A stretch of 64,000 nt of DNA from a virus. Taxonomy: Duplodnaviria; Caudoviricetes. The stretch covers positions 1-64,000 of IMG/VR virus record IMGVR_UViG_3300044212_000014. The stretch is one strand, 5' to 3'. This document shows, in pieces, positions 23,324 through 55,431 of the stretch (the stretch's first letter is position 1; every line of letters starts with the position of its first letter). Both the position numbers and the translations under genes were made by a program. The notes below the pieces were generated by a model. That model was not told the origin of the DNA, did no database searches, and was given only the letters and a program-made list of their open reading frames with translations.

Positions 23324-23330
23324 AAAAGAC

Positions 23331-23359: not shown

Positions 23360-23379
23360 GTATTCATGGAGGTAAGGAA

Positions 23380-24927: not shown

Positions 24928-24928
24928 C

Positions 24929-25857: not shown

Positions 25858-26095
25858 CGAAAATAGAATGTCGAGAATTGAACCTACGTCGCTTTATATC
25901 TCTAGCGTTAGCGAGAAAGACCAGCATGGAATTGACCGTTTAGTCGCAACTCGCATTATGGCTTTAAATGCAACGACTCCTAAGCCTATCGTGGTAAAGA
26001 CGTTCGCTATCGGAGACTTTGACAACGGGGTAAAAATAGAAACTTCCGAACGTCTTTTGGAAGTAACTAAAGATGCCATGGAGGATATAGGATAA
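25847..26095 (+). CDS. Hypothetical protein
   Basis: Translationally coupled ORF. Confidence 0.5.
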   Translation: MISSENRMSRIEPTSLYISSVSEKDQHGIDRLVATRIMALNATTPKPIVVKTFAIGDFDNGVKIETSERLLEVTKDAMEDIG

Positions 26096-26532: not shown

Positions 26533-26549
26533 TCAGCCTAGGAGGTTTT

Positions 26550-27071
26550 ATGCCAAGAACAAGAAAAAATGAAACTTATTCTGTAGATGATTTAAAAGTA
26601 ACTAAATATGAACCATATACGCCAGAGGCCCCGAAGGTGAAGGTAAAGTTTATAAAAGAAAGACCCGACTCTAAGGCTCCTGAATATAAGACGGATGGCT
26701 CGTTTGCTTTTGACCTGTACTCCGATAGGGACTGTACTGTTGTTGGTAATAAACCTACACTAATTTCTTTGGGGGTAAAAGTTGAAATTCCATCTGGATA
26801 TGGTATGTTAATTATTCCTAGGTCATCCATTGGGAGCAAAACTCCCCTTCGTCAGTCAAATTCAGTTGGCCTAATTGATAGTGATTACCGTGGTGTTGTT
26901 ATGGTAATGTATGAATCAAACAGAGATATTGCTGGTTCGACTATAGTTCGTAGAGGGGATAGAATAGCGCAGGGATTTCTAATCCCATATGTAAATGTTG
27001 ACTTTGTAGAAGCAGACGAATTAAGCGAGACAGAAAGGGGTACTGGTGGATTTGGTTCTACTGGTAGATAG
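26550..27071 (+). CDS. dut: Trimeric dUTPase
   Basis: AFDL, PRSS, GLIDSDYRG, DRIAQ, RGTGGFGSTG motifs. Confidence 0.95.
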   Translation: MPRTRKNETYSVDDLKVTKYEPYTPEAPKVKVKFIKERPDSKAPEYKTDGSFAFDLYSDRDCTVVGNKPTLISLGVKVEIPSGYGMLIIPRSSIGSKTPLRQSNSVGLIDSDYRGVVMVMYESNRDIAGSTIVRRGDRIAQGFLIPYVNVDFVEADELSETERGTGGFGSTGR

Positions 27072-27080
27072 GAGAACGAT

Positions 27081-27288
27081 ATGTGTGTAACTAGAGTGCA
27101 ACTATTTTTTATGGTAGCAGGATTCATTGCTGGTCTTGTGTCCCTATCTGGTGTTATATACCATCTTGTTATGACATTTCGATGGAATGATATTGTAGCG
27201 TGGAGTGGTATGTTATCGTCTTATATTGTTTGAGGTATCCGACCTATTTAAGCCAGACTTTGAAGATAATGACATGGAGGATAAATAA
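27081..27288 (+). pseudogene. Small membrane protein, frameshifted relative to copy 2 (34850-35056)
   Basis: Extra C near 27220 (TCGTCTTAT vs TCGTTTAT) gives a TGA at 27231-27233. Confidence 0.7.
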
Positions 27289-27289
27289 T

Positions 27290-27647
27290 ATGAAAGTACC
27301 AGAACATTACGTAGAATATTTCGAAAACAGAAGAAAAAGGTGTCGTTGTTTGCAAGTTAAAAAACTGCTTTACCGTTAGGAAGTGCGCTATTGACCATCT
27401 GAGCAAAATGGGTGACTGGGCGATTAGAGATGCTTTCTCGGCATACTCCGCTAGCGTAGACGAAAATAAACAGCAAAGAATCGGTATTGCTCATTTAGCC
27501 GACGGTGATATCTGGGACTCTCGCACTGGTCGTAAAGTGGCAAAGACGAAACTTGAAACGCACGTAAGTAACTATTTCTTGAAAGTATTAGATAGCATTA
27601 CCAATGATGCGTTACAGGTCGTAACTTGCTTTTTAACGGAGGTGTAG
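27290..27647 (+). pseudogene. Hypothetical protein, frameshifted relative to copy 2 (35058-35414)
   Basis: GAAAACAGAAG vs GAAAATGAAG: a 1-bp insertion near 27329 leads to an early TAG. Confidence 0.7.
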
Positions 27648-27651
27648 TCCA

Positions 27652-27945
27652 TTGAATGTTATTGGATATGACAACTCAGGTAAGAAGAAAAAAGCGACGA
27701 AAGAAACGAACGAATGGTTTGACGAACATTACGGTGGAACAAGTGATGAAATTCAACCAATAGAATTTATGCAATCTCAATTTTCAGAAGAAGCGTTTGT
27801 TGGCGCTATCTTGTTTAATATAGTTAAGTACTCTTCACGGCTCGGGAAAAAGGATTCCCCTTTAGAGGAAGCGCGGAAGATACTACGATATTCCCAATGG
27901 TTAGTTAAGGTACTAGAGGGAGAAACAATAGACCCAAGGGTTTAA
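27652..27945 (+). CDS. DUF3310/SaV-like protein
   Basis: HY....IQPIEF...F....NIVKY..RLGKK....E.RK...Y..WL. Confidence 0.8.
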   Translation: MNVIGYDNSGKKKKATKETNEWFDEHYGGTSDEIQPIEFMQSQFSEEAFVGAILFNIVKYSSRLGKKDSPLEEARKILRYSQWLVKVLEGETIDPRV

Positions 27946-27976
27946 ATATAAAATTATGTTTTATTGAAGGGGGTTT

Positions 27977-28291
27977 TTGATGCCGAAGTTATTGGCAATC
28001 CTCTCACTATTATTCGTTTTCGCAATGCCCGTTTATGGGATGCAGGTTAGATGTACTGCATATACAACTACTGAGAACACGGGCATTATGGCTAACGGTA
28101 TGGAAGCGCAGGTCGGATATGTGGCTTGTGACTTCCTTCCCTTAGGTACTGTCATATACATAGACGGTGCTAGGTACATAGTAGGAGATAGGATAGGAGA
28201 CGGAACAAACAACCATATTGATATTGTTTTTAACAGTTACGACGAAGCAATAAACTTTGGTGTGCAGTATTTAGATATGGAGGTAGCATAA
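27977..28291 (+). CDS. Secreted 3D-domain (MltA-like) protein
   Basis: Signal peptide, then TAY...MANG...VACD.LPLGT.IYI.G..Y.V.DR...HIDI. Confidence 0.85.
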   Translation: MMPKLLAILSLLFVFAMPVYGMQVRCTAYTTTENTGIMANGMEAQVGYVACDFLPLGTVIYIDGARYIVGDRIGDGTNNHIDIVFNSYDEAINFGVQYLDMEVA

Positions 28292-29092
28292 TTGAATGAG
28301 ACGGACATGATAAGTAAAGCGTACCTACCTCACGTAATGAGGACTAGGGTTATTGGAGATAAAGGTGCGCTGGCTGTCTTATCTGATATACATGAGGGTG
28401 CAAACAACAGGAAATATTTACAAGATGCCGTGTCGTTCTTGTTATCGCTAGGGCCTCGATGTAAAGTTGTTATCGGTGGAGATAGTACCAATACCATAAC
28501 ACGGAATAGCAAGGGAATACCTATCGAAGAATGGGCTAGCGGGGATAAACAAATATTTTCCCTCGTTGATGATATAAAGCCATTGTATGACTCAGGACAG
28601 ATCATAGGGATTACATCTGGTAATCACACGAGGAGAGCATATGACAGCACATTTATAACGATAGAAGCCATGATCGCAAGCATACTGGGCGATAGGTCAT
28701 TATATAAGGGTTCTATGGGTATTGTATATTTCAACGTAAATAAAAATTGTTACGTCCACCATATTTTACATAAACATAGGGCTACGGAAGGTGCATATGA
28801 TTTCTTCTCGGCAGACGCTAACTGGTTCGAGCATAAGCATAAGCCAATGGTTCGCCCTAAGATAATGATTGACCATAACAAATATGAAAAGGTTCCCGTG
28901 GCTAAGAGATGTTGGGATATATACCAGTCTTCATTTCAGGATTATCCTGATTATGCCAAGGTCGCTGGATATAGACCTAGTGTCCCCGGATTTTATATTT
29001 GCGAAATGAGCGGAGATATTCATAATAGATCGCTTACCCCATATATGGATGGAACGTACCACGCACTTATTAATGGCGGTTATGTGTTTTAA
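28292..29092 (+). CDS. Calcineurin-like metallophosphoesterase
   Basis: SDIH.G, GGD, SGNH, H.H and HKH motifs. Confidence 0.8.
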   Translation: MNETDMISKAYLPHVMRTRVIGDKGALAVLSDIHEGANNRKYLQDAVSFLLSLGPRCKVVIGGDSTNTITRNSKGIPIEEWASGDKQIFSLVDDIKPLYDSGQIIGITSGNHTRRAYDSTFITIEAMIASILGDRSLYKGSMGIVYFNVNKNCYVHHILHKHRATEGAYDFFSADANWFEHKHKPMVRPKIMIDHNKYEKVPVAKRCWDIYQSSFQDYPDYAKVAGYRPSVPGFYICEMSGDIHNRSLTPYMDGTYHALINGGYVF

Positions 29093-29104
29093 GGAGAGAG
29101 TAAA

Positions 29105-29617
29105 ATGCCGAATTATCTTGATAGCCTAATAGATTCTTATGTTGATGATACGGAGCAAGATACGTACCAGTTACAAAAATATATCGTGGGCCTAATCGAC
29201 AAATATTCTTCCGAACAGATAGATGGTAAAGAGGCGTGTCGTAGCATATCAAATATTACACGTCGAGACGAGTGGATACAGGACGTAAATAGTAATAGAT
29301 TGAAAGAGAAAATAAAACAGAAATACTCGTTTGTCCGGTATGCAAAATCGCCTGAGGATATAATTATAGAGTGGGAAACCGCGGAAAAGATACTACATTT
29401 CCTTACGTGGTTACATTCTATAATTAATCACACTGATTGGTATATACTTACTCAGATGTCATTTAGGAAGATACCAGCTACTATGTTAGCAAGAGAAATG
29501 AACATACCAAGGGACACGATATATAAAAGACTTTCCGTTGTTAGGAATGTGGCTAAAGAGTTTATGCCATATTATGCGGAACAGTTCGGAGATATTAAAG
29601 AATATTTGGAGGACTAG
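29105..29617 (+). CDS. Putative transcription regulator with a C-terminal sigma-region-4-like HTH
   Basis: IPATMLAREMNIPRDTIYKRL HTH pattern. Confidence 0.6.
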   Translation: MPNYLDSLIDSYVDDTEQDTYQLQKYIVGLIDKYSSEQIDGKEACRSISNITRRDEWIQDVNSNRLKEKIKQKYSFVRYAKSPEDIIIEWETAEKILHFLTWLHSIINHTDWYILTQMSFRKIPATMLAREMNIPRDTIYKRLSVVRNVAKEFMPYYAEQFGDIKEYLED

Positions 29618-29739
29618 ACATGGACACGGTTAAAGCAGAAAAAGATTCTATAAAAGTATATGTATCAATACCACCGTTAAGTTCTGTATAATAATATAAC
29701 TAAAATAAAGGCAACAGTTCGTTAAAATGGAGGGAAAAT

Positions 29740-31092
29740 TTGAAAATATATAACGGCGATTGTATGGAATGCTTACTAATGATACCAGATAATAGCGTAG
29801 ATGCTGTAGTTACTGATCCCCCTTATGAATTAGGATTCATGGGCAAAAAGTGGGACAAGACAGGGATAGCTAATAATGTAGACATGTGGCACGAAGTATT
29901 ACGTGTTTTAAAACCGGGCGGTCACTTGCTGGCATTTGGGGGTACTCGACAGGTAAGAGTTATCTGTGTACCCGACGGAATAAAGGACATGAACGACATG
30001 CTGGTAGCTGGCATAAATCCGGCAGATTTACCGTCAGAAGACATTAGTAAGTTTGTTTTGAGGCGCATCCTTAATAAATGTAAAACGATAGAGCAAGAGT
30101 ACTCAAAAGCGGAAGAGTTTTTTAGGACAGTATCTAGTCAGCTTATAAAACTGGATATAATCCATATGTTATCAGAACGCTGGGGGAAAGAGTTTGATGA
30201 CCTAAAAAAGACATTCTCAGCAGTAGGTGAGGACACAGAATCCATATTACAAGAAGCGTCAAACGTAGATGATTGTATCGCAGACCTACGACAGATATAT
30301 GAGTCTGGGGGATACCCAACACACTTCCAACAAATTGATAACTGTATTCATAAGGTAGAAAAGAAACAAGTAGTTATCGTAGGGGCTTGTGCTGGTTGTG
30401 GTAAGTCTAACTTTGCTATAGAGTATATGTTAAGAGCTATATGCCACAATAAACAACGTGTTATATTCTTCTCTCTCGAAATGCCAAAGGGCAAACTCAT
30501 GGAGAGAATAATTGCCCAGTTGTTAAAAGTGCCAGTTCCAGATGTAGAAAACTTAATATTACAGGGAAACCCGTTAGTATTAAAAATACTAGACCTGTTA
30601 CGCAAGAAATTAATTGTGTTTGATGGTAACTCTATGGACATGGAAGGTATTGCGAGGAGAATAGATATCGTCAATGCCAAAGAACTTCTTGGTGGCCCAG
30701 TTGATATGGTGTTTGTTGATTACTTCGGCTATGTAAAGGGTACGTCTGATTTCGAGGGTGCGTCTAATGCCGCTAGGGAAATGAAGGGTATCGCGAAAAG
30801 TAGAAACATTATATTCGTTATGTTAAGCCAGTTAAACCGTAGTGGTAATGAATACAGCGAACCAACGATGCAACAGTTAAAACTTACGGGAGACTTAGAA
30901 GCGTCTGGAGATATCGTAATGTTATTGTGGCGACCAGAGAAAGACCCTAACTTAGCACTTGCTGATAGACAGGAGCTAGAGAATGTGACTAGGTTAAAGA
31001 TATGCAAAGCCAGAGATGGTATGTATGGCTCCAATATGATACAGTTTAAGTATAACAAACAGGAATCACGACTAGAAGAATGTTACATGTAG
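29740..31092 (+). CDS. Chimeric ORF: DNA methyltransferase N-terminus fused in frame to the primase-helicase C-terminus (duplication junction)
   Basis: The first ~70 aa match 37507-38538 (TDPPY...FGGTR); the rest (QVRVICV...EECYM) matches 21341-23323. Confidence 0.9.
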   Translation: MKIYNGDCMECLLMIPDNSVDAVVTDPPYELGFMGKKWDKTGIANNVDMWHEVLRVLKPGGHLLAFGGTRQVRVICVPDGIKDMNDMLVAGINPADLPSEDISKFVLRRILNKCKTIEQEYSKAEEFFRTVSSQLIKLDIIHMLSERWGKEFDDLKKTFSAVGEDTESILQEASNVDDCIADLRQIYESGGYPTHFQQIDNCIHKVEKKQVVIVGACAGCGKSNFAIEYMLRAICHNKQRVIFFSLEMPKGKLMERIIAQLLKVPVPDVENLILQGNPLVLKILDLLRKKLIVFDGNSMDMEGIARRIDIVNAKELLGGPVDMVFVDYFGYVKGTSDFEGASNAAREMKGIAKSRNIIFVMLSQLNRSGNEYSEPTMQQLKLTGDLEASGDIVMLLWRPEKDPNLALADRQELENVTRLKICKARDGMYGSNMIQFKYNKQESRLEECYM

Positions 31093-31148
31093 AAAAGACT
31101 TGACAAAACGTTAAAAATGTGGTATAATGTATTCATGGAGGTAAGGAA

Positions 31149-31811
31149 ATGCCATATACAATACCTGAGTTCGAAAATTACATATTATATGATAACCTAG
31201 ATGTTTTTAGCAAGACGTCTGGTAGGTTTTTAAGCGCAGAGGTGGTAACACTGTGCAACGGCAAAACTAGAAAGCATTTTACTAGGAACTCTCTTAAGAA
31301 ATATATCCCCATAGATGATAAGTATATTAAAATCCCTGGTTTTAACGGGGAATATGGGATATCAAAAGATGGTGAGGTTTATAGCTTTAAAACATTTAGG
31401 GTATTAAAATCATACCCCAACAAATATCGTCGCGGATATGTATATATCATACTGAGCCTCAATGGGAAACCAAAAACTTGCAAGGTACATAGGTTAGTAG
31501 CATTAACATACATACCAAATCCAAGTGGTAAGGAGTGCGTTAACCATATTAATGGAAATGTACAGGATAACAGTGTCGATAATTTGGAATGGTGTACAGT
31601 TAAAGAAAACAACCTTTGGAATGTTAGTAGAGGCGTTGCTAATGGTGGTAACCATAAAAAATGTTATCTATACACCAAGTCCGGAGAGTTTGTTGGTTCG
31701 TTTCGCTCTATTAGAAAGGCTAGCGAATACGTCAAGTCTATTGGGTGTAGCGGATATGATGATATTAGGAAATTAAAATATAATAAATATTACACGTTGG
31801 AGGTGCGTTAA
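31149..31811 (+). CDS. HNH endonuclease (copy 2)
   Basis: Identical protein to 23380-24042. Confidence 0.9.
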   Translation: MPYTIPEFENYILYDNLDVFSKTSGRFLSAEVVTLCNGKTRKHFTRNSLKKYIPIDDKYIKIPGFNGEYGISKDGEVYSFKTFRVLKSYPNKYRRGYVYIILSLNGKPKTCKVHRLVALTYIPNPSGKECVNHINGNVQDNSVDNLEWCTVKENNLWNVSRGVANGGNHKKCYLYTKSGEFVGSFRSIRKASEYVKSIGCSGYDDIRKLKYNKYYTLEVR

Positions 31812-32696
31812 TTGCCACTAAGTAGCTATTTTTGTCCCGACGGCGGGAGAATCAAAATTGAAGATTGTTTAAAAGAATGTAGATTAAAAGGTAAGATGAA
31901 CCCAATAACCGGAATGGACTATGTTACTTGCGGGAGGTGTTTATCTATACCGACATTAAGAGCCGTTTCCGAACAGAGAAGTTGGACTGGCAAACCATCC
32001 ACTACTCAGTTGTTACGAGGAACGAGAGAGGCATATTTAACTCTTACGAGAGAATATGCAATCGACCCCAAAAGTATGATGTTTGCTCTTCACGGCACAA
32101 ACACTCATGCGAGACTCGAAGACGGCATGTCAGAAGAGGACTTGGGGGAACAGCGGCTGGATGACGGAGTGTCCACTGGAGCATTTGACTACTACTCAGA
32201 TGAAGACGGGGGAACGCTATTCGACTATAAGACGTACTCTTCATATGTTTGTGGAAAGTATATGGGAATAGGGAGCAGGAAGGAACTAATAGGCCATTAC
32301 AAGAATGGTAAACCTAGATTTCAGTCAGTAAGAACTTATGGTAATGCAAAGCACGACCTAGACCTAGCCATACAGTTAAACGATTACCGGATGAAAATAC
32401 AAAAGGTTCTTAAAAAGCCAGTAGCAAACATGGTTTGTGAGATGATTGTAAGAGACGGTGGCACGTATATGGCTAAGAATAGAGGGGTAGATGATACTGC
32501 ATACCTCATTAAGGTTGGTAAAATAAGTGATATTTGGGTTGAGAGGTATATGAAACGAAAAGCAAACGATTTAATTTCTGCGCTAGAAACTGGGAGAATG
32601 CCGCCACCATGCAGACCACATGAATGCTGGCACGGTAGAAAATGCAGAGACTTCTGCCCAGTTAATATGTATTGTGACGCATACAAAGGAGAATAA
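31812..32696 (+). CDS. Cas4/RecB-like exonuclease (copy 2)
   Basis: Identical protein to 24043-24927. Confidence 0.75.
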   Translation: MPLSSYFCPDGGRIKIEDCLKECRLKGKMNPITGMDYVTCGRCLSIPTLRAVSEQRSWTGKPSTTQLLRGTREAYLTLTREYAIDPKSMMFALHGTNTHARLEDGMSEEDLGEQRLDDGVSTGAFDYYSDEDGGTLFDYKTYSSYVCGKYMGIGSRKELIGHYKNGKPRFQSVRTYGNAKHDLDLAIQLNDYRMKIQKVLKKPVANMVCEMIVRDGGTYMAKNRGVDDTAYLIKVGKISDIWVERYMKRKANDLISALETGRMPPPCRPHECWHGRKCRDFCPVNMYCDAYKGE

Positions 32697-32697
32697 C

Positions 32698-32964
32698 ATG
32701 GATAAAGACATCTTAGCAGAATTTGAGAAAGAATTAAAGTCTGGTATTAAAATTGGGATTAACATGAAAGAGAATAACGACAAGGTTGAGTGTGGCATTA
32801 TCGGTGATAAAGAGTATTCTCCTCAGCTTGTACTAACCTTGTTGATCATCTCCATTGCTAATCTTATGCAGATAGACCCAAGCGATCTGTTAGACGCGTG
32901 TGTTTCTGCTCGCAAGAAAGATGGTATTGACTTGTCAGACCAGTTCGAACATCTTATTAACTAA
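32698..32964 (+). CDS. Hypothetical protein (copy 2)
   Basis: Identical to 24929-25195. Confidence 0.55.
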   Translation: MDKDILAEFEKELKSGIKIGINMKENNDKVECGIIGDKEYSPQLVLTLLIISIANLMQIDPSDLLDACVSARKKDGIDLSDQFEHLIN

Positions 32965-33626
32965 TGGATGAGTGCGAAGTAAGAAGTAATTGTAGGAAGA
33001 GTTATGATTGCGATTGGTGCGATTACTATAGCGAATATTCCCCAATAAACATTAATATTAAATGCAAAAGACAGATAGAAAATACAAAAATTCGTAGAGA
33101 GCAGAGGAAAGTGAAAAGAATTTCCGATGCCTCTAAGAGGGGAAGGTCAAACAGAAGGAACGGACGTAAGGCAGAACGAGACGTTGAAAATCTATTAAAC
33201 GAACTGGGGTTAGATGCCTCAAGAACTCCTATGTCCGGCGCACTTAAAACAGCAAACCTCATACCTCAATTAAAAGACCATGTGTCCGGTGATATAAGAA
33301 TAAAGTATTTAGACAAAGAGCTTATAGTTGAATGCAAAAGGAATATTCATTCGGATAGTTGGTATAAACTTACAGAAAAAGGTTTAATACATATAGATGG
33401 GTTTTGCTATGGTCTTACAAAAGAGTTATTCGAATATTTGGTAAACGGACTACTAAGTGGGGAATGTATTGATATCCCAGACAACAAATTTAAGATGTTG
33501 CATAAATATTTCGACCAAGATAACTCAGATATCGTCGTTGTTACTAGGCCATGGCACGACCCCCTGTTCTTCTTAAAAGAAAAAACATTTGAATTATTCG
33601 GAGGTAATATAAATCATGATAAGTAG
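32964..33626 (+). CDS. Holliday junction resolvase-like nuclease (copy 2)
   Basis: Identical to 25195-25857. Confidence 0.7.
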   Translation: MDECEVRSNCRKSYDCDWCDYYSEYSPININIKCKRQIENTKIRREQRKVKRISDASKRGRSNRRNGRKAERDVENLLNELGLDASRTPMSGALKTANLIPQLKDHVSGDIRIKYLDKELIVECKRNIHSDSWYKLTEKGLIHIDGFCYGLTKELFEYLVNGLLSGECIDIPDNKFKMLHKYFDQDNSDIVVVTRPWHDPLFFLKEKTFELFGGNINHDK

Positions 33627-33864
33627 CGAAAATAGAATGTCGAGAATTGAACCTACGTCGCTTTATATCTCTAGCGTTAGCGAGAAAGACCAGCATGGAA
33701 TTGACCGTTTAGTCGCAACTCGCATTATGGCTTTAAATGCAACGACTCCTAAGCCTATCGTGGTAAAGACGTTCGCTATCGGAGACTTTGACAACGGGGT
33801 AAAAATAGAAACTTCCGAACGTCTTTTGGAAGTAACTAAAGATGCCATGGAGGATATAGGATAA
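33616..33864 (+). CDS. Hypothetical protein (copy 2)
   Basis: Identical to 25847-26095. Confidence 0.5.
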   Translation: MISSENRMSRIEPTSLYISSVSEKDQHGIDRLVATRIMALNATTPKPIVVKTFAIGDFDNGVKIETSERLLEVTKDAMEDIG

Positions 33865-34301
33865 TGCCTCCGGCATATGAAGAGTTGGTAAGCCAATTCG
33901 AAGAAATAAAGTATAGATACGAACAACTCACGGATACAGATGTGTTAGAGGCATTCTCTCTCATGAGAGATTCCTCTTCACTACTGGCAAGTTACGACAC
34001 GATGGTAGCGGAGTCATACAAACTAACGGCACTTACCGAAAGACAAGCTAGGGCGGTAGAGGCCAGAAAAAGTATAGAACTTTCTGTTAAACCGACGGAA
34101 GGCGCGAGAAGAGCAACCGCTGATGAAGAAGTCGTATCGGCGTGGAATAAATATATATCGGTAGCTACAAGTCAGAAATATATAGAAGCCAACGCAAAGT
34201 TCCTTAGTAGAGTATATTTCGATGCCAAGATGATAACTGAGAATTGTTATCGAAAGGAAAGGCCGGCAGTAGGAACAGACCGTATTGTTGGTAGAACGTA
34301 A
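33864..34301 (+). CDS. Hypothetical protein (copy 2)
   Basis: Identical to 26095-26532. Confidence 0.55.
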   Translation: MPPAYEELVSQFEEIKYRYEQLTDTDVLEAFSLMRDSSSLLASYDTMVAESYKLTALTERQARAVEARKSIELSVKPTEGARRATADEEVVSAWNKYISVATSQKYIEANAKFLSRVYFDAKMITENCYRKERPAVGTDRIVGRT

Positions 34302-34318
34302 TCAGCCTAGGAGGTTTT

Positions 34319-34840
34319 ATGCCAAGAACAAGAAAAAATGAAACTTATTCTGTAGATGATTTAAAAGTAACTAAATATGAACCATATACGCCAGAGGCCC
34401 CGAAGGTGAAGGTAAAGTTTATAAAAGAAAGACCCGACTCTAAGGCTCCTGAATATAAGACGGATGGCTCGTTTGCTTTTGACCTGTACTCCGATAGGGA
34501 CTGTACTGTTGTTGGTAATAAACCTACACTAATTTCTTTGGGGGTAAAAGTTGAAATTCCATCTGGATATGGTATGTTAATTATTCCTAGGTCATCCATT
34601 GGGAGCAAAACTCCCCTTCGTCAGTCAAATTCAGTTGGCCTAATTGATAGTGATTACCGTGGTGTTGTTATGGTAATGTATGAATCAAACAGAGATATTG
34701 CTGGTTCGACTATAGTTCGTAGAGGGGATAGAATAGCGCAGGGATTTCTAATCCCATATGTAAATGTTGACTTTGTAGAAGCAGACGAATTAAGCGAGAC
34801 AGAAAGGGGTACTGGTGGATTTGGTTCCACTGGTAGATAG
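34319..34840 (+). CDS. dut: dUTPase (copy 2)
   Basis: Identical protein to 26550-27071. Confidence 0.95.
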   Translation: MPRTRKNETYSVDDLKVTKYEPYTPEAPKVKVKFIKERPDSKAPEYKTDGSFAFDLYSDRDCTVVGNKPTLISLGVKVEIPSGYGMLIIPRSSIGSKTPLRQSNSVGLIDSDYRGVVMVMYESNRDIAGSTIVRRGDRIAQGFLIPYVNVDFVEADELSETERGTGGFGSTGR

Positions 34841-34849
34841 GAGAACGAT

Positions 34850-35056
34850 ATGTGTGTAACTAGGATGCAACTATTTTTTATGGTAGCAGGATTCATTGCT
34901 GGTCTTGTGTCCCTATCTGGTGTTATATACCACCTTATTATGACTTTCGAATGGAATGATATTGTTGCATGGGGCGGTATGTTATCGTTTATATTGTTTG
35001 AGGTATCAGACCTATTTAAACCAGAATTTGAAGATAATGACATGGAGGATAAATAA
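34850..35056 (+). CDS. Small two-TM membrane protein (intact copy)
   Basis: AGGAGA RBS, two hydrophobic helices. Confidence 0.65.
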   Translation: MCVTRMQLFFMVAGFIAGLVSLSGVIYHLIMTFEWNDIVAWGGMLSFILFEVSDLFKPEFEDNDMEDK

Positions 35057-35057
35057 T

Positions 35058-35414
35058 ATGAAAGTACCAGAACATTACGTAGAATATTTCGAAAATGAAG
35101 AAAAAGGTGTCGTTGTTTGTAAATTAAAAAACTGCTTTACCGTTAGGAAGTGCGCTATTGACTATCTCAACAAAATGGGTGATTGGGCAATTAAAGACGC
35201 TTTCGCGGCATACTCCGCTAGCGTAGATGAAAATAAACAGCAGAAAATCGGTATTGCTCATTTAGCCGACGGTGATATCTGGGACTCTCGCACTGGTCGT
35301 AAAGTGGCAAAGACGAAACTTGAAACGCACGTAAGTAATTATTTCTTGAAAGTATTAGATAGTATTACCAACGATGCTTTACAGGTGGTTACTTACTTTT
35401 TAACGGAGGTGTAA
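35058..35414 (+). CDS. Hypothetical protein (intact copy)
   Basis: Start MKVPEHY after GGAGG; ends with GGAGGTG overlapping the next RBS. Confidence 0.6.
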   Translation: MKVPEHYVEYFENEEKGVVVCKLKNCFTVRKCAIDYLNKMGDWAIKDAFAAYSASVDENKQQKIGIAHLADGDIWDSRTGRKVAKTKLETHVSNYFLKVLDSITNDALQVVTYFLTEV

Positions 35415-35418
35415 TCCA

Positions 35419-35712
35419 TTGAACGTTATCGAATATGACAACTCAGGTAAGAAGAAAAAAGCGACGAAAGAAACGAACGAATGGTTTGACGAACATTACG
35501 GTGGAACAAGTGATGAAATTCAACCGATAGAATTTATGCAATCTCAATTTTCAGAAGAAGCGTTTGTTGGCGCTATCTTGTTTAATATAGTTAAGTACTC
35601 TTCACGGCTCGGGAAAAAGGATTCCCCTTTAGAGGAAGCGCGGAAGATACTACGATATTCCCAATGGTTAGTTAAGGTACTAGAGGGAGAAACAATAGAC
35701 CCAAGGGTTTAA
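35419..35712 (+). CDS. DUF3310/SaV-like protein (copy 2)
   Basis: One substitution relative to copy 1. Confidence 0.8.
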   Translation: MNVIEYDNSGKKKKATKETNEWFDEHYGGTSDEIQPIEFMQSQFSEEAFVGAILFNIVKYSSRLGKKDSPLEEARKILRYSQWLVKVLEGETIDPRV

Positions 35713-35743
35713 ATATAAAACTATGTTTTATTGAAGGGGGTTT

Positions 35744-36058
35744 TTGATGCCGAAGTTATTGGCAATCCTCTCACTATTATTCGTTTTCGCAATGCCCGTT
35801 TATGGGATGCAGGTTAGATGTACTGCATATACAACTACTGAGAACACGGGCATTATGGCTAACGGTATGGAAGCGCAGGTCGGATATGTGGCTTGTGACT
35901 TCCTTCCCTTAGGCACTGTCATATACATAGACGGTGCTAGGTACATAGTAGGAGATAGGATAGGAGACGGAACAAACAACCATATTGACATTGTTTTTAA
36001 CAGTTACGACGAAGCAATAAACTTTGGTGTGCAGTATTTAGATATGGAGGTAGCATAA
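35744..36058 (+). CDS. 3D-domain protein (copy 2)
   Basis: Identical protein to 27977-28291. Confidence 0.85.
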   Translation: MMPKLLAILSLLFVFAMPVYGMQVRCTAYTTTENTGIMANGMEAQVGYVACDFLPLGTVIYIDGARYIVGDRIGDGTNNHIDIVFNSYDEAINFGVQYLDMEVA

Positions 36059-36859
36059 TTGAATGAGACGGACATGATAAGTAAAGCGTACCTACCTCAC
36101 GTAATGAGGACTAGGGTTATTGGAGATAAAGGTGCGCTGGCTGTCTTATCTGATATACATGAGGGTGCAAACAACAGGAAATATTTACAAGATGCCGTGT
36201 CGTTCTTGTTATCGCTAGGGCCTCGATGTAAAGTTGTTATCGGTGGAGATAGTACCAATACCATAACACGGAATAGCAAGGGAATACCTATCGAAGAATG
36301 GGCTAGCGGGGATAAACAAATATTTTCCCTCGTTGATGATATAAAACCACTATATGATTCAGGACAGATTATAGGGATTACATCTGGTAATCACACGAGG
36401 AGAGCATATGACAGCACGTTTATAACGATAGAAGCCATGATCGCAAGCATACTGGGCGATAGGTCATTATATAAGGGTTCTATGGGTATTGTATATTTCA
36501 ACGTAAATAAAAATTGTTACGTCCACCATATTTTACATAAACATAGGGCTACGGAAGGTGCATATGATTTCTTCTCGGCAGACGCTAACTGGTTCGAGCA
36601 TAAGCATAAGCCAATGGTTCGCCCTAAGATAATGATTGACCATAACAAATATGAAAAGGTTCCCGTGGCTAAGAGATGTTGGGATATCTACCAGTCTTCA
36701 TTTCAGGATTATCCTGATTATGCTAAGGTAGCAGGGTATAGGCCCAGTGTTCCGGGATTTTATATTTGCGAAATGAGCGGAGATATTCATAATAGATCGC
36801 TTACCCCATATATGGATGGAACGTACCACGCACTTATTAATGGCGGTTATGTGTTTTAA
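36059..36859 (+). CDS. Metallophosphoesterase (copy 2)
   Basis: Identical protein; synonymous SNPs. Confidence 0.8.
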   Translation: MNETDMISKAYLPHVMRTRVIGDKGALAVLSDIHEGANNRKYLQDAVSFLLSLGPRCKVVIGGDSTNTITRNSKGIPIEEWASGDKQIFSLVDDIKPLYDSGQIIGITSGNHTRRAYDSTFITIEAMIASILGDRSLYKGSMGIVYFNVNKNCYVHHILHKHRATEGAYDFFSADANWFEHKHKPMVRPKIMIDHNKYEKVPVAKRCWDIYQSSFQDYPDYAKVAGYRPSVPGFYICEMSGDIHNRSLTPYMDGTYHALINGGYVF

Positions 36860-36871
36860 GGAGAGAGTAAA

Positions 36872-37384
36872 ATGCCGAATTATCTTGATAGCCTAATAGA
36901 TTCTTACGTAGATGACACGGAGCAAGACACGTATCAATTACAAAAATATATCGTGGGCCTAATCGACAAATATTCTTCCGATAAGATAGATGGTAAAGAG
37001 GCGTGTCGTAGTATATCAAATATTACACGTCGAGACGAGTGGATACAGGACGTAAATAGTAATAGATTGAAAGAGAAAATAAAACAGAAATACTCGTTTG
37101 TCCGGTATGCAAAATCGCCTGAGGATATAATTATAGAGTGGGAAACCGCGGAAAAGATATTACATTTTCTTACATGGTTACATTCTATAATTAATCACAC
37201 TGATTGGTATATACTTACTCAGATGTCATTTAGGAAGATACCAGCTACTATGTTAGCAAGAGAAATGAACATACCAAGGGACACGATATATAAAAGACTT
37301 TCCGTTGTTAGGAATGTGGCTAAAGAGTTTATGCCATATTATGCGGAACAGTTCGGAGATATTAAAGAATATTTGGAGGACTAG
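36872..37384 (+). CDS. HTH transcription regulator (copy 2)
   Basis: EQ>DK difference from copy 1. Confidence 0.6.
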   Translation: MPNYLDSLIDSYVDDTEQDTYQLQKYIVGLIDKYSSDKIDGKEACRSISNITRRDEWIQDVNSNRLKEKIKQKYSFVRYAKSPEDIIIEWETAEKILHFLTWLHSIINHTDWYILTQMSFRKIPATMLAREMNIPRDTIYKRLSVVRNVAKEFMPYYAEQFGDIKEYLED

Positions 37385-37506
37385 ACATGGACACGGTTAA
37401 AGCAGAAAAAGATTCTATAAAAGTATATGTATCAATACCACCGTTAAGTTATGTATAATAATATAACTAAAATAAAGGCAACAGTTCGTTAAAATGGAGG
37501 GAAAAT

Positions 37507-38538
37507 TTGAAAATATATAACGGCGATTGTATGGAATGCTTACTAATGATACCAGATAATAGCGTAGATGCTGTAGTTACTGATCCCCCTTATGAATTAG
37601 GATTCATGGGCAAAAAGTGGGACAAGACAGGGATAGCTAATAATGTAGACATGTGGCACGAAGTATTACGTGTTTTAAAACCGGGCGGTCACTTGCTGGC
37701 ATTTGGGGGTACCCGTACATATCATCGTATGGCATGTGCCATTGAGGATGCAGGATTTGAAATCCGTGACCAACTACAGTGGATTTATGGCAGTGGATTT
37801 ACAAAGTCCATGGATATTAGCAAGGCGATTTATAAAAAAGCTGGGATATGGAGAGGAAAAGCGGGCAACGTAATCTCTAAAAATGGTTCTATGAGCGCAC
37901 CAAATTATGAACGGACACCAAAAGTGGAGCCTATTACTGAACTTGCTAAACAATGGAACGGATTTGGCACAGCTCTTAAGCCTGCAAACGAGCCTATCTG
38001 TCTTGCTCGTAAGCCGCTGACTAAAAAAAGTGTTGTAGATAATATACTGAGATACGGTACCGGAGGCATTAATATTGACGGGTGTCGAATACCCACTACG
38101 CAACTGCACGTTCAAAAAGCAAAAGGTTCTAATGGGACTCAGGGGATATACGGCGACTTTAATACCATGGGTGTATATGCCCCCAACCCACACGGTAGAT
38201 TCCCGTCGAACGTTATACTCGACGAAAACGCATCACAACTTTTAGATGCGCAGACAGGAACTCTTAAAAGCCGATTTTTTTACTGTGCAAAGGCTTCACG
38301 GAAGGAACGTGACCAAGGACTTGACGACCACAACAATCATCCGACAGTAAAGCCTGTAGACCTTATGCGATATTTAGTTAGCCTTGTTACAAAAGAAGGG
38401 CAAGTCGTTCTTGATCCGTTTATGGGTAGTGGGACAACTGGGGTTGCTTGTGTGTTAAATCATAGAGATTTTATAGGGATAGATAAAGACAAGCATTATT
38501 GTGATATTGCCGAAAGGCGCATCGCCTATTCTATATAG
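37507..38538 (+). CDS. DNA amino-methyltransferase (N6-adenine/N4-cytosine, beta class)
   Basis: TDPPY near the N-terminus; HPTVKP and DPFMGSGTTG (FxGxG) near the C-terminus. Confidence 0.92.
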   Translation: MKIYNGDCMECLLMIPDNSVDAVVTDPPYELGFMGKKWDKTGIANNVDMWHEVLRVLKPGGHLLAFGGTRTYHRMACAIEDAGFEIRDQLQWIYGSGFTKSMDISKAIYKKAGIWRGKAGNVISKNGSMSAPNYERTPKVEPITELAKQWNGFGTALKPANEPICLARKPLTKKSVVDNILRYGTGGINIDGCRIPTTQLHVQKAKGSNGTQGIYGDFNTMGVYAPNPHGRFPSNVILDENASQLLDAQTGTLKSRFFYCAKASRKERDQGLDDHNNHPTVKPVDLMRYLVSLVTKEGQVVLDPFMGSGTTGVACVLNHRDFIGIDKDKHYCDIAERRIAYSI

Positions 38539-51755: not shown

Positions 51756-51936
51756 GGTAATACCTCCTATATATCTAACTTACGTTTTTTAACTTCTTTA
51801 GCTTTAGGCTGGGGGAATCTAACCTTAGTAATGTCAACCTTTGTTATATTTCTTGTATCTCTCATTTCTAGGTAGTATTCCCCTCTCCATACAAATATCT
51901 TACCTTTTCTCCCGTTCTTAAATTGGATAGTCATAC

Positions 51937-52692
51937 CTATTTATCTAATCTAGCCTTTTTGCCAAATAATCTAGGCAATGCCACACAAAACACACCATAA
52001 TCAAGGCTAAAAGTATCTTTTGGATTGCAAATTGCATATGAGTTAGCCCTATGCCCATTTTTAACCTTTGTTAGTCGTATTTTTTTACCTTCTACGTGTA
52101 CCAATATATTATCCGGCAACTGATAGTTATGTTTAAGTTTTAATACTGATTGGGACGAAAACGAGCCTATATTATCAAGATCAACCACCTGATTGCCGAT
52201 AATATTTCTAACTACCGACATCCTACCAATAAACGCTTTGTTGAGAACTTCTAATAACACTACCTTATCACCTTTGTGTAATTCTTCTCCCTGAACGTCA
52301 GTAACCTTTTTGATAACCTCATATTTTTTAAACACGTTTTCCGGCATTTTTGCTGTCCTACTTGAGTTTATGTCCTTTATGCACATAACAGCTTCGGAAG
52401 TTACGTCATAACGGGGGGATAGCATTAGGTCTTCTTCATCAAAAAACCAGCAATCATGATATTCGCTAGGCTTACCCTTATATCTTTTATGGGTTTTAAG
52501 CCCCGATCCAGTATGCAATATAAGGCCTTCATTTTCAATAAATACCAAAGGATATTTAACAAGATATACATTATCCTCATGTTCGGTATAATATCCTTGT
52601 ATTACCCCGTGGCGACCCCTCAGCATCATATCGGCGCCTTTAAGTCCCCCTCTGTTTTTCGCAAATACGCGATCTCCTAGTTTAAATTTCAT
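51937..52692 (-). CDS. Hypothetical protein with SH3-like N-terminal repeats
   Basis: MKFKLGDRV...G.I; C-terminal AICNP.D.F...G..VAL.RL. Confidence 0.6.
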   Translation of the reverse strand: MKFKLGDRVFAKNRGGLKGADMMLRGRHGVIQGYYTEHEDNVYLVKYPLVFIENEGLILHTGSGLKTHKRYKGKPSEYHDCWFFDEEDLMLSPRYDVTSEAVMCIKDINSSRTAKMPENVFKKYEVIKKVTDVQGEELHKGDKVVLLEVLNKAFIGRMSVVRNIIGNQVVDLDNIGSFSSQSVLKLKHNYQLPDNILVHVEGKKIRLTKVKNGHRANSYAICNPKDTFSLDYGVFCVALPRLFGKKARLDK

Positions 52693-52704
52693 TTTTATTT
52701 CCTC

Positions 52705-52884
52705 CTATTCAATTAAGAACTCATCATAACCGCATGTTATGTGGCATTTGCTTCTTTTCTTTATATTCCATTGTATCGCGTCAATATCTTGACTATCTAA
52801 AGTATAACAGTTTTCGAGTAGCTCGTCAATACAATGGTTTAAGCTTCCTTGTGTAATTACCCTCCCGTTTATTAATAGCTTCAT
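52705..52884 (-). CDS. Small hypothetical protein whose RBS is stem II of hammerhead HH1
   Basis: GGGAGG upstream of ATGAAG (alternative start at 52893). Confidence 0.55.
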   Translation of the reverse strand: MKLLINGRVITQGSLNHCIDELLENCYTLDSQDIDAIQWNIKKRSKCHITCGYDEFLIE

Positions 52885-52894
52885 TTTAATCATC

Positions 52895-52963
52895 CTCCCT
52901 CATCAGTGCCATATAGCCTATGGCATACGTGAGAGTATGCGTCTCCTCTTCACGTTTCGGGAA
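52895..52963 (-). ncRNA. Type II hammerhead ribozyme HH1
   Basis: Minus strand: UUCCC-GAAA-stem III (CGUG.AGAG/CUCUCACG)-UA-stem I (UGCCAUA/UAUGGCA)-CUGAUGA-GGGAG. GUA triplet; cleavage predicted between 52926 and 52925. Confidence 0.9.
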
Positions 52964-53076
52964 ACAGTTCTCGTACTGTCAGACGATAATAGATTTGGGA
53001 ATAAAGTAAGTAGTTTGACGCATGAACGGTTTTAGCCCCGTCAGGCACGAACATTAAACTGCTACCTCATGTTTCT

Positions 53077-53105
53077 ATCATATCATATTCTATTGGCTCT
53101 GTCAA
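53077..53105 (-). promoter_or_regulatory. sigmaA promoter upstream of HH1
   Basis: TTGACA-17 bp-TATGAT on the minus strand. Confidence 0.75.
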
Positions 53106-53207
53106 TATAATCTTGTAAAGATTGTAGGCAAGGCGGCAAACAATAATTCACATTCTTACATTGATGATACCATACGTTTATACCGTCGGACTTCTCGCGC
53201 TGTACAT
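53083..53207 (-). pseudogene. Small ORF with an apparent 1-bp deletion near its start
   Basis: Strong AAGGAGGTG RBS gives MYSARSPTV*, while a shifted frame continues EKSDGINVWYHQCKNV...RI*. Confidence 0.4.
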
Positions 53208-53233
53208 GACGCTCTCACCTCCTTTGTGCGTGT

Positions 53234-53497
53234 CTAGTACCAGTCGTCATTGTCATAATATTTTTTCACATCAGCCCCCATTTCAGAGAGAGCTTTTAAG
53301 CATTGTAACTCATGGTCTACACAACCTCTGAAAATGATATCTCTTGTTCCCCTAACACTCACATCAATCCCCTGCATAGCCATCTCCGCCATGGCATTTG
53401 CAAAACAATAGTCCTCATGATTTAGCCCAATGCTGTTAATGATATCCCCTAATTCTTCCGGTGTATAACTCAATTTCTTTCCCATTTTATCCTCCAA
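53234..53497 (-). CDS. Hypothetical protein
   Basis: ORF in the early operon. Confidence 0.55.
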   Translation of the reverse strand: MEDKMGKKLSYTPEELGDIINSIGLNHEDYCFANAMAEMAMQGIDVSVRGTRDIIFRGCVDHELQCLKALSEMGADVKKYYDNDDWY

Positions 53498-53753
53498 TTT
53501 TTACAAAATATAAGCAATCTAAGCCACGTTCCCACGACCGGATATTTTTGGTCGCAATTTTAACTTCATCATTGAAGTCCTCTTTTGTAGTGCCAACCAA
53601 AGTAAACTCAATGGGACTAGCTATTTGTATATCGTCGTGATTCATGTACACTAGCAAGGTATTGCCTTTCTTAGCGTGTCGATATGCGGCATTTTTAGGT
53701 ACTCTCATATATTCCTCGCCGTCTTTTATGACTCTCATTTCTTTAAACTGCAC
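53487..53753 (-). CDS. Hypothetical protein
   Basis: GGAGGT RBS. Confidence 0.55.
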   Translation of the reverse strand: MQFKEMRVIKDGEEYMRVPKNAAYRHAKKGNTLLVYMNHDDIQIASPIEFTLVGTTKEDFNDEVKIATKNIRSWERGLDCLYFVKIGG

Positions 53754-53767
53754 TTATATACCTCCTA

Positions 53768-54121
53768 TTACCAATGGAATTTACCTTTTCCGGGCTTAAT
53801 TACCCAATTCGGATAAAAACCGCCTCTTTCGTTTAGGTATAGAATCCCTCTTATTTTCTCTTGTTTACCTCTTTTACCAACGATGTTCGTAGGCTGAACA
53901 ATATTGAAAACATCTCTAATAATTCTTTGTATACGCCCCGTTGTGACACTATATTTACGGTCATCAAACCTAGCAAATTCTCCGTCCGTCCTAAATATCT
54001 CTGTTTGATATGACTTAATAACATACTCATTATCATCCGTATAGTATGCCGAGACAGACTCTCCTACGAATGGTACGCTGTGTCTGATTTTATCTGGCAT
54101 ATCTTTATATGTAGTTTTCAT
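53768..54121 (-). CDS. Hypothetical protein (SY.T.I...YS.TT.R.Q phage family)
   Basis: GGGG RBS; motif typical of phage early proteins. Confidence 0.55.
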   Translation of the reverse strand: MKTTYKDMPDKIRHSVPFVGESVSAYYTDDNEYVIKSYQTEIFRTDGEFARFDDRKYSVTTGRIQRIIRDVFNIVQPTNIVGKRGKQEKIRGILYLNERGGFYPNWVIKPGKGKFHW

Positions 54122-54135
54122 TTTATTACGCCCCC

Positions 54136-54450
54136 TTATAGTAATACAGAATCTTGAATTTCTTCCGTTGCGAGTGCTATTGACTCTTGATTCAGTCCGG
54201 CCTTAATACCTTTTATTGCACCGCATACTTTTTCGTAAGTGGTAAATAGTAACTCAATTTTGAATGTCTTCTCGGTTATAACCTGCCCGTTTTCATGAGT
54301 ATACACGCCCTCTGCGCCTACAAACGTAGCGCCGTCAATTCCATTCTTTGCAAACTCTCCATTGATAATGGATTTTGCCTTTTTAACAGAGATAATTTGT
54401 TTCTTTAAATCCTTGTCAGCTAAGCCGACGTATAACGTATATCTTTTCAT
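54136..54450 (-). CDS. Candidate SAM lyase / DUF3574-like ferredoxin-fold protein
   Basis: YTLYVG...G.T...A.GVY.HENG....EKT..IE...LNQESI resembles the GCY...EEKT...EQD core of T3 SAMase. Confidence 0.55.
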   Translation of the reverse strand: MKRYTLYVGLADKDLKKQIISVKKAKSIINGEFAKNGIDGATFVGAEGVYTHENGQVITEKTFKIELLFTTYEKVCGAIKGIKAGLNQESIALATEEIQDSVLL

Positions 54451-54498
54451 ATCAACTCCACCTTTCAAAGTTATTATATCACGTTTTTACAGCTTTGT

Positions 54499-54801
54499 CT
54501 ACTGTTTTTCCAGCCACTCTTTCAACTCGTTCATATCAAACGGGCATTTAAAATCATCTAAACTATTAAAACTAATTAAGTCATCTCCTATTTCTGATAG
54601 GGTAAAAAAATTGTCGTCCGTAGAATATAATCCAGTTTCTACCATCCACGCCATTTCCCAAGGGGTAGATTCGTTGAACCAGTGGTTAAAGTGGTCAGGA
54701 ATATTTTCATGAATCCTATCACCTTCTCGTCCTTTTTCGCCAATCATGTCATTCCATAAACCAATCAATTCCATATCTGTTAAGTTTTTTAAATTTACCA
54801 T
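54499..54801 (-). CDS. Acidic hypothetical protein (paralogue of 51438-51755)
   Basis: Shared WN...SFNSL.D..P.D..L pattern. Confidence 0.6.
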   Translation of the reverse strand: MVNLKNLTDMELIGLWNDMIGEKGREGDRIHENIPDHFNHWFNESTPWEMAWMVETGLYSTDDNFFTLSEIGDDLISFNSLDDFKCPFDMNELKEWLEKQ

Positions 54802-54802
54802 G

Positions 54803-55042
54803 TTAATTATTCCTTTCTTGAAAACGGCATCCAAAACTGAAATATGTTTTATGTGAAGAAATTTCTATAAACCTAACTGGCTTATAAAAACCAGTACGAT
54901 GTCTAAAACCTATAGCACCTAGACGAGCAAGTTCTTTTTTTGTAAGTAACTGCCCTTCTACTACCGGAATGTGAGATACACAAACCGCGTTTTTGTTTTT
55001 TGTGATGATAACTCCATCCGTCATGATTTTATAATATTTCAT
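54803..55042 (-). CDS. Small basic hypothetical protein directly downstream of hammerhead HH2
   Basis: GAGGAGG RBS then ATG (MKYYKIMTDG). Confidence 0.6.
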   Translation of the reverse strand: MKYYKIMTDGVIITKNKNAVCVSHIPVVEGQLLTKKELARLGAIGFRHRTGFYKPVRFIEISSHKTYFSFGCRFQERNN

Positions 55043-55061
55043 TTTAACTCCTCCTCTACCT

Positions 55062-55120
55062 ATCTCATCAGTGTATAGCCAGTAACCGCTATACAGACAG
55101 GGCAAATGCCCTGTTTCGAT
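55062..55120 (-). ncRNA. Type II hammerhead ribozyme HH2
   Basis: Minus strand: AUC-GAAA-CAGGGC(AUUU)GCCCUG-UC-UGUAUAGC(GGUUACUG)GCUAUACA-CUGAUGA-GAU. Canonical GUC triplet; cleavage predicted between 55096 and 55095. Confidence 0.9.
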
Positions 55121-55282
55121 TCGCCCACCTGTCACGTAGGAAGTCTTTCTGTAAATTCAATTTTCAAAGAACAGGTGTTCGCGTGGGAAACAACCCACGT
55201 TCCCGTTTTCATACTGGTTACATTCTCAGTAATAGCAAGTTACTATTACCTATCCGACCACTGCCGGACTTTCTATGGCTCT

Positions 55283-55311
55283 ATTATACAACCCTTGATT
55301 CAACTTGTCAA
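55283..55311 (-). promoter_or_regulatory. Early sigmaA promoter
   Basis: TTGACA-17 bp-TATAAT with extended TG. Confidence 0.85.
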
Positions 55312-55376
55312 GCAAATCTTTTTTGAATGTAGACTGTCGCTATCTGCCGTTTCTACACCGGGAGATTTACTGGTTT

Positions 55377-55431
55377 GTCTCGTCAGTATACAGAGAACCA
55401 TTCTGTATATACGGGCATTGCCCGTTTCGAC
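55377..55431 (-). ncRNA. Type II hammerhead ribozyme HH3
   Basis: Minus strand: GUC-GAAA-CGGGC(AAU)GCCCG-UA-UAUACAGA(AUGGUUC)UCUGUAUA-CUGACGA-GAC. Loop I UGGUU can pair with the AACCA just 3' of stem II. Cleavage predicted between 55410 and 55409. Confidence 0.9.

Follow-up and report, generated by a model that had tools for sequence, protein, structure and literature searches.

A type II hammerhead ribozyme, HH1, stands directly in front of a gene for a 59-aa protein in a genome of the Caudoviricetes, and the 3' strand of its stem II is at the same time the Shine-Dalgarno sequence (SD) of that gene. This identity, proposed in the initial annotation of the locus, was confirmed, with GGGAGG (52899-52894) found 9 nt before the AUG of the open reading frame 52705-52884. 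Judged from its sequence, HH1 is a genuine and probably active type II hammerhead, and it belongs to the 5' UTR of an operon expressed early by the phage. With somewhat more conviction than doubt, we read HH1 as a constitutive ribozyme that trims or insulates the leader and that was grafted on the gene's own SD, with release of the SD as a built-in consequence. The locus is a compact case, in which one promoter and one ribozyme occur together with one SD common to both, and for which a natural control lacking the hammerhead exists.

The analyzed window comprises 64,000 nt (positions 1 to 64,000 of the IMG/VR record IMGVR_UViG_3300044212_000014). The source record is a virus genome of 74,271 nt that is rated as complete by CheckV, and the large terminase of this phage shares only about 25% identity with its counterparts in known phages. 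HH1 and two further type II hammerheads, HH2 and HH3, were all identified on the minus strand within 2.5 kb, amid a run of small orphan early genes (Table 1). The 59-aa protein showed a weak match to phrog_30214 (E 1.8e-4) and homologs with 95 and 80% identity, while the proteins neighbouring it were orphans in searches of Pfam and PHROGs. Homologs of the neighbouring 251-aa and 79-aa proteins were near-identical only, a search for related loci in viral contigs with these two proteins returned no relatives, and blastn of 51900-55200 against GenBank phages returned no match.

Promoters were assigned by a scan against a sigma-70-type consensus. Transcription from the promoter before HH1 is predicted to start near 53070, and this promoter is kept in the related contig L158 with one change in the spacer. 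As this promoter stands upstream of it, HH1 is placed in a 5' UTR. The promoter between HH3 and HH2 is kept in both L002 and L158, and since it precedes HH2, this ribozyme would also lie in a 5' UTR, about 155 nt past the predicted start.

Table 1. Positions of the hammerheads, promoters and reading frames at the locus.
Feature	Position	Strand	Details
HH1, type II hammerhead	52894-52964	minus	identified by sequence, RF02276 and structural descriptor
HH1 stem II, 5' strand	52964-52959	minus	UUUCCC
HH1 GAAA	52958-52955	minus	
HH1 stem III	52955-52927	minus	ACGUGA(A)GAG, 10-nt loop, CUC-UCACGU; 9 bp, one bulge
HH1 A17	52926	minus	cleavage predicted at 52926/52925
HH1 stem I	52925-52907	minus	UGCCAUA-GGCUA-UAUGGCA; 7 bp
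HH1 CUGAUGA	52906-52900	minus	
HH1 stem II, 3' strand, identical to SD	52899-52894	minus	GGGAGG; 6 bp, two of them G.U
59-aa ORF	52705-52884	minus	AUG 52884; in-frame alternative AUG 52893
251-aa ORF	51937-52692		coupled; next after the 59-aa ORF
5' leader	52965-53070	minus	AUCGUCU 52987-52981 predicted to pair with GGAUGAU 52895-52889; predicted hairpin 52980-52963
Promoter before HH1	53077-53105	minus	TTGACA, 17 nt, TATGAT; extended -10 TG; 11/12 matches
HH2, type II hammerhead	55056-55120	minus	stem II AUC/GAU, 3 bp; C17 55096; stem I 55095-55072
HH2 CUGAUGA	55071-55065	minus	
HH2 tail	55061-55056	minus	AGGUAG
SD downstream of HH2	55056-55050	minus	GAGGAGG (GGAGG 55054-55050); AUG 55042; ORF 55042-54803
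Promoter between HH3 and HH2	55283-55311	minus	TTGACA, 17 nt, TATAAT; perfect, 12/12
HH3, type II hammerhead	55370-55431	minus	CUGACGA; A17 55410; loop I / 3' tail pseudoknot UGGUU:AACCA
Promoter before HH3	55477-55449	minus	consensus scan

The core nucleotides of HH1 are canonical at all 13 of 13 positions, with the pairs G10.1-C11.1 (G52899-C52959) and A15.1-U16.1 (A52955-U52927) intact. HH1 also has the topology of the family, in which stems I and III are capped by loops and stem II is open to the flanks. Since stems I and III are hairpins, the cleavage products share only stem II. The initial annotation was thus right on this topology but set the connection at only 5-6 bp, while the minimum free energy (MFE) structure extends stem II to 4+7 bp (UCCC/GGGA and AUCGUCU/GGAUGAU around an inserted hairpin). 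The alternative AUG at 52893 abuts GGGAGG directly, and the start site would overlap HH1 even more if this were the true start. By inspection, no pseudoknot between loop I and the tail was found in HH1, the loop I sequence GGCUA having no complement in AUGAUUAAA, and HH1 may therefore be slow at cellular Mg2+. Many but not all members of the family have such a pseudoknot. A candidate pseudoknot of 4 bp, GGCU:AGCU at a distance of 13 nt, was rejected as being at chance level. HH1 is identical in all four copies (the window, L001, L002, and L158) and therefore has no covariation support of its own; it shows 0 changes in 71 nt, compared to a difference of about 4% between L158 and the window over the surrounding 2 kb.

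In a search restricted to 131 nt, HH1 was matched to the Rfam family RF02276 with 23.7 bits (E 0.004), below the gathering score of 37, and HH2 with 39.4 bits. The low score of HH1 is explained by a 16-nt insertion in stem III and the missing usual pseudoknot tail, not by the core. Rfam searches of the whole window at the gathering score, of 20 kb at E<=1, and of the whole genome with RF02276 returned no hammerhead, which is apparently an effect of the speed filters in long runs and not a sign of absence. A structural descriptor demanding the hammerhead core and three helices was also applied, and its chance level was obtained from 100 dinucleotide-shuffled genomes. HH1, HH2, and HH3 received descriptor scores of 22, 20, and 17, respectively. 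Shuffled genomes contained 0.26 matches each, with a top score of 17 that was reached once in 100 shuffles, and the score of HH1 was reached by 0 of 100. A fourth match at 40816 scored 11 and was dismissed as chance level. Rfam searches of the leader and the ribozyme flanks yielded no family at E<=1, a hit to cow-rumen-1 (E 4) being at chance level. No sensor or aptamer domain coupled to the HH1 core is visible, and HH1 does not qualify as a ligand-controlled ribozyme.

The ownership of the SD could be read from contig L157, which carries the homolog of the 59-aa protein with 80% identity and has no hammerhead upstream. There, the gene lies about 55 nt past a promoter of TTGACA, 17 nt, and TATAAT, behind a plain leader. 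In the alignment, the similarity between L157 and the window begins exactly at GGAGGAUGAUU..AUG, with the same SD and spacer. As the homology begins at precisely this point, the SD and the spacer belong to the gene; GGAGG is the gene's own, and the ribozyme supplies only the first G (10.1). HH1 was joined to the gene, or removed from it, at the SD junction. Since L157 keeps the same SD without a hammerhead, the gene needs no ribozyme for its translation.

Masking of the SD was modelled with ViennaRNA. The probability that GGGAGG is unpaired was 0.012-0.015 in precursors containing the leader versus 0.25 in the 3' product, and the corresponding masking amounted to 2.75 and 0.86 kcal/mol, respectively. 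In bare HH1 without the leader, the predicted cost of opening the SD was 0.87 kcal/mol versus 0.86 in the 3' product, which corresponds to no masking. Shuffled leaders showed a mean masking of 3.58 kcal/mol and reached or exceeded the native 2.75 kcal/mol in 120 of 200 cases, while the leader of L157, which has no hammerhead, gave 3.21 kcal/mol. Because shuffled leaders mask the SD as much or more, the argument that the leader evolved to hide it falls, and the 4+7-bp extension of stem II as a sign of evolved masking is likewise unsupported by the shuffle test. In nearest-neighbour modelling, the bare hammerhead fold is not the dominant one. The energy model ignores the tertiary structure of the hammerhead; for this reason, the predicted masking neither proves nor excludes a real one. 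The earlier proposal that cleavage unmasks the ribosome-binding site was accordingly borne out in its geometry, with SD and anti-SD on opposite products; the predicted masking is no greater than with shuffled leaders.

The association of the two cleavage products was predicted at -10.2 to -10.6 kcal/mol, corresponding to a Kd of about 40-60 nM. Given the extended stem II and a product binding of about -10.4 kcal/mol, release of the 5' fragment may be slower than assumed; in this model, the fragment would plausibly leave, though not instantly, and could conceivably bind again. The fold of the HH1 leader reached a z-score of only -1.4. An upstream AUUCCC (about 53003-52998) was considered as an alternative, riboswitch-like anti-SD and was rejected, since it reads AUUCCA in L158.

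HH2 ends just upstream of the GAGGAGG of ORF 54803-55042, as the initial annotation had also described. The SD of this gene is not part of the ribozyme, and the prediction is that it is open whether or not the RNA has been cleaved (P 0.49 before versus 0.62 after). In L158, HH2 carries a compensatory change from A-U to G-C in stem III and a change from U7 to C. The homology to L158 stops right after the HH2 tail GAUAGGUAGA, and a different gene with its own SD follows there.

HH3 begins about 10 nt past the predicted start site of the promoter preceding it and is followed by no ORF, and its cleavage would leave the transcript without its 5' triphosphate end almost immediately. The L158 copy was matched to RF02276 with 41.4 bits. 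A17 of HH3 is replaced by C17 in both L002 and L158, and copies in related contigs show one more base pair in stem III and a pseudoknot that is kept as AGCCA with a G.U pair. The compensatory changes and the changes at positions where they are allowed (H17, N7) in HH2 and HH3 indicate that the hammerheads of this phage group are under structural selection. Homology between L158 and the window sets in exactly with the first base of the 5' strand of HH3 stem II. As homology breaks at the hammerhead edges, the ribozymes are regarded as discrete modules abutting the SD of each gene, and they behave as boundaries of exchangeable gene cassettes.

Several further observations were made around these ribozymes. 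The breakpoints of homology at hammerhead edges are located at 55431 and 55055 in the window, at 37-416 in L158, and at 224 in L157. The interval between the cleavage sites of HH3 and HH2 (55096-55409, minus strand) measures 314 nt, holds no convincing ORF, and contains the promoter 55311-55283. The interval is about 92% conserved in L158, and its excision would give it 5'-OH and 2',3'-cyclic-phosphate ends. The 9-mer AGGUAGAGG occurs twice on the minus strand, directly 5' of HH3 at 55440-55432 and at 55061-55053, where it forms the HH2 tail and the beginning of the SD. It is missing upstream of HH3 in L158, and its presence at both places may reflect recombination between ribozyme modules. 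The sequence CUUCCUAC (55143-55136, minus strand) is complementary to GUAG(A)GGAG (55059-55051), which comprises the HH2 tail and the SD, and L002 and L158 carry CCUCCUAC in its place, which pairs in a shifted register. A role of CUUCCUAC as a long-range anti-SD for the gene behind HH2 is possible, and this pairing dominates the predicted fold only if the RNA starts near 55160.

For a comparison with other phages, viral contigs were fetched by a pattern that was unconstrained 3' of G10.1 and were then filtered by structure, which yielded 72 distinct type II hammerheads. The start codon followed the CUGAUGA core at a median of 28.5 nt, with a distance of 20-39 nt in 48 of the 72, and the upstream stop codon lay at a median of 10 nt before stem II. 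The SD was usually separate and located past the pseudoknot tail. Based on this spacing, a position just before the ribosome-binding site, as in HH2, is the norm, and the surveyed type II hammerheads may be general elements of gene-boundary processing. An SD embedded in the ribozyme was found in about 7% of them, and HH2 and HH3 are not among such cases.

At least three other phage lineages, namely L076, the L079 family, and L172, also have start sites embedded in type II hammerheads. L076 carries four hammerheads of the form CUGAYGA-GGU-N5-7-AUG, one of which scores 48.7 bits and has its AUG within the part covered by the Rfam model. The AUG of the L079 family stands 7 or 4 nt after the core, and elsewhere the same ribozyme is followed by a hairpin and a separate SD. 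The hammerhead of L172 has a stem II of GGAG/CUCC and an AUG at +11. When the viral contigs were scanned completely for hammerheads with CTGATGAGGAGG or CTGATGAGGGAG at the end, 20 and 17 stretches were returned, respectively, and no close look-alike of HH1. Only about five of these stretches were true hammerheads; in all of them, stem II is GGG, the tail is AGCC, and a separate SD follows downstream. In L163 and its relatives within the L079 family, the 3' strand of stem II (GGAUAG) can pair with a downstream CUAUCC, leaving AAGGAG in the loop; this hairpin is possibly a refold after cleavage that displays an SD.

The description of type II hammerheads, covering the pseudoknot and the clusters around phage genes, dates from 2011, when mRNA processing was proposed for them; in it, Perreault et al. 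make no mention of ribosome-binding sites (PMC3088659). The view in the literature is that hammerheads of bacteria and phages probably serve to process polycistronic mRNAs, although a review of 2019 still called their purpose undefined (PMC6765202, PMC3088659), and our literature search found no paper combining "type II hammerhead" with "Shine-Dalgarno". HH1 shares the core and the permuted topology of the RF02276 type II hammerheads (PMC3088659), in which stems I and III end in loops and only stem II is open. These hammerheads form intergenic clusters in phages, several per locus and flanking small genes, which is also the case here. HH1 differs from them by the missing pseudoknot between loop I and the 3' tail and by a stem II of 6 bp (predicted 4+7) compared to the usual 2-4 bp. 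In addition, the 3' strand of its stem II is the downstream SD, and it is located in a promoter-proximal 5' UTR and not between cistrons.

Engineered hammerhead and twister ribozymes that sequester an SD in E. coli express 5- to 100-fold more from active than from dead constructs (PMC7445771, PMC5052635), and this cleavage-dependent expression makes an unmasking mechanism physically plausible. As in these devices, the SD of HH1 is one strand of a helix whose other strand, the anti-SD, is found on the other cleavage product. In the engineered platforms, which are designed constructs, the SD is hidden in P1/P3 of a twister or in a lengthened stem I of a type I hammerhead, usually in combination with an aptamer. 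HH1, in contrast, is a natural RNA whose SD belongs to stem II of a type II hammerhead, and no sensor is visible in it. HH1 resembles the glmS ribozyme-riboswitch as a self-cleaving RNA in a bacterial-type 5' UTR, glmS cleavage being known to alter downstream expression. In contrast, glmS depends on a ligand and its cleavage leads to mRNA decay (OFF), whereas HH1 has no ligand domain and a predicted effect that is neutral or ON. RNase III trims the leaders of phage early mRNAs, such as those of the T7 early region and lambda N, and thereby removes structure at start sites and defines stable ends. That processing is performed by a host protein enzyme on a long hairpin, whereas the HH1 RNA would cut itself. 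In fungal and plant RNA viruses, self-cleavage of a hammerhead in the 5' UTR is reported in a preprint to be needed for cap-independent initiation of translation (bioRxiv 10.1101/2024.05.16.594327). Unlike HH1, that system is eukaryotic, involves a type I hammerhead and no SD, and acts by a mechanism unrelated to unmasking.

In the favoured reading of HH1 as a constitutive trimming or insulating ribozyme, transcription from the promoter 53105-53077, or read-through from upstream, would produce a precursor in which UUUCCC pairs with GGGAGG and closes the ribozyme, and in which AUCGUCU/GGAUGAU may lengthen the pairing. Self-cleavage after A52926 would then shed a leader of about 145 nt bearing a 2',3'-cyclic phosphate, and leave an mRNA whose 5'-OH end lies flush in the hairpin of stem I, 26 nt upstream of the SD. 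Both the folding ribozyme and the 30S subunit need these six nucleotides of the SD, so that the SD would be free permanently once the RNA is cut and the 5' fragment has left. The outcome would be a defined 5' end that is uncoupled from upstream RNA and probably shielded by the hairpin; from what is known of RNase J/E, a hairpin flush with a 5'-OH end may be expected to protect it.

It is unlikely that sequestration of the SD is itself the selected function and that HH1 is a cleavage-gated ON device, acting as a timer or sensing Mg2+, temperature, or a factor, with the uncleaved mRNA being silent. Such a device would account for the anti-SD and SD on opposite sides of the cleavage site, for the 6 bp of stem II where 3-4 bp are usual among the surveyed hammerheads, for a predicted extension of the pairing that covers the spacer and the first AUG, and for a precursor SD that is predicted to be about 20-fold less open than that of the 3' product. 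Embedded start sites in independent phages and the synthetic precedent (PMC5052635, PMC7445771) are also consistent with it. The long stem II could merely compensate for the missing pseudoknot, however, and shuffled leaders mask the SD as well or better, as does the hammerhead-less leader with its 3.21 kcal/mol. The L157 ortholog has the same start region without a hammerhead, the leader holds no aptamer-like or other known RNA family, and only about 7% of the surveyed hammerheads embed an SD, HH2 and HH3 not included. The translational ON switch of the initial annotation lacks specific support: nothing suggests regulated cleavage, so that the "switch" is at best a constitutive maturation step. 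At the other extreme, the overlap of ribozyme and SD could be without functional consequence, HH1 processing or stabilising the mRNA or being a mobile or recombining module while ribosomes open stem II anyway. We consider this quite improbable, as a folded hammerhead gains tertiary stability that the energy model ignores and a comparable helix has strong effects in engineered cases (PMC5052635). The coincidence of module junctions with hammerhead edges is nevertheless in its favour, as are the low predicted cost of opening the SD, the weakness of stem II with its two G.U pairs, and the position of the SD outside the ribozyme in most type II hammerheads. The ribozyme of the L079 family, moreover, is joined to three different downstream contexts, in one of which the AUG stands 4 nt past the core, so that GAGG is no normal SD.

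Two further explanations concern the fragments and the activity of the ribozyme. The released leader of about 145 nt could be a functional small RNA with a 3' end defined by HH1, and it might act in trans as an anti-SD on its own or other mRNAs. Promoter and ribozyme would define both of its ends, the predicted product association (about -10.4 kcal/mol, Kd about 40-60 nM) would allow it to stay bound or to rebind, and the leader is largely conserved in L158. As no known RNA family matches the leader, its fold z-score is only -1.4, and the L158 leader contains indels and several substitutions that look unpaired, this explanation is very improbable. That HH1 is an inactive relic keeping a hammerhead-like sequence is scarcely credible in view of the intact core (13 of 13 positions, G10.1-C11.1, and A15.1-U16.1), the 0 changes in 71 nt compared to about 4% L158 divergence over the surrounding 2 kb, and the two clearly selected sister ribozymes nearby, even though its Rfam score is below gathering, no pseudoknot was found, and stem III is long and bulged.

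The start sites in this phage, in L076 (four times), in the L079 family, and in L172 might form a natural class of "ribozyme-licensed" start sites that are translatable only after self-cleavage and loss of the upstream RNA, a suggestion that we make tentatively and with considerable doubt. In these unrelated phages, stem II and the tail of the hammerhead incorporate the SD and in some cases the entire spacer. If true, such sites would be the natural counterpart of the engineered SD-masking switches and would provide the first defined function for phage hammerheads. If cleavage is needed for translation, nature would use the same trick that synthetic biologists designed, and the need would explain the type II permutation upstream of genes, with a hairpin-capped 5' end and release of the strand opposite the 3' flank. 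If cleavage is unnecessary, the locus still documents a fixed short spacing from hammerhead to start and hammerhead edges at the junctions of mosaic cassettes.

Elsewhere in the genome, positions 22179-29951 and 29948-37719 form a head-to-tail tandem duplication of 7.77 kb with 99.0% identity, which reflects either a genuine recent event or an error of the assembly. Beyond the window, a unit of 645 nt occurs in three tandem copies with >99.7% identity at genome positions 68513-70474. On the plus strand, 84 nt at 15767-15850 were matched with 76 bits to the tRNA-like ends of tmRNA, with the interior wholly missing, and adjoin a tRNA. About 180 nt beyond this match, a full-length match to the EGFOA RNA was found on the plus strand at 16034-16139 with 61.6 bits.
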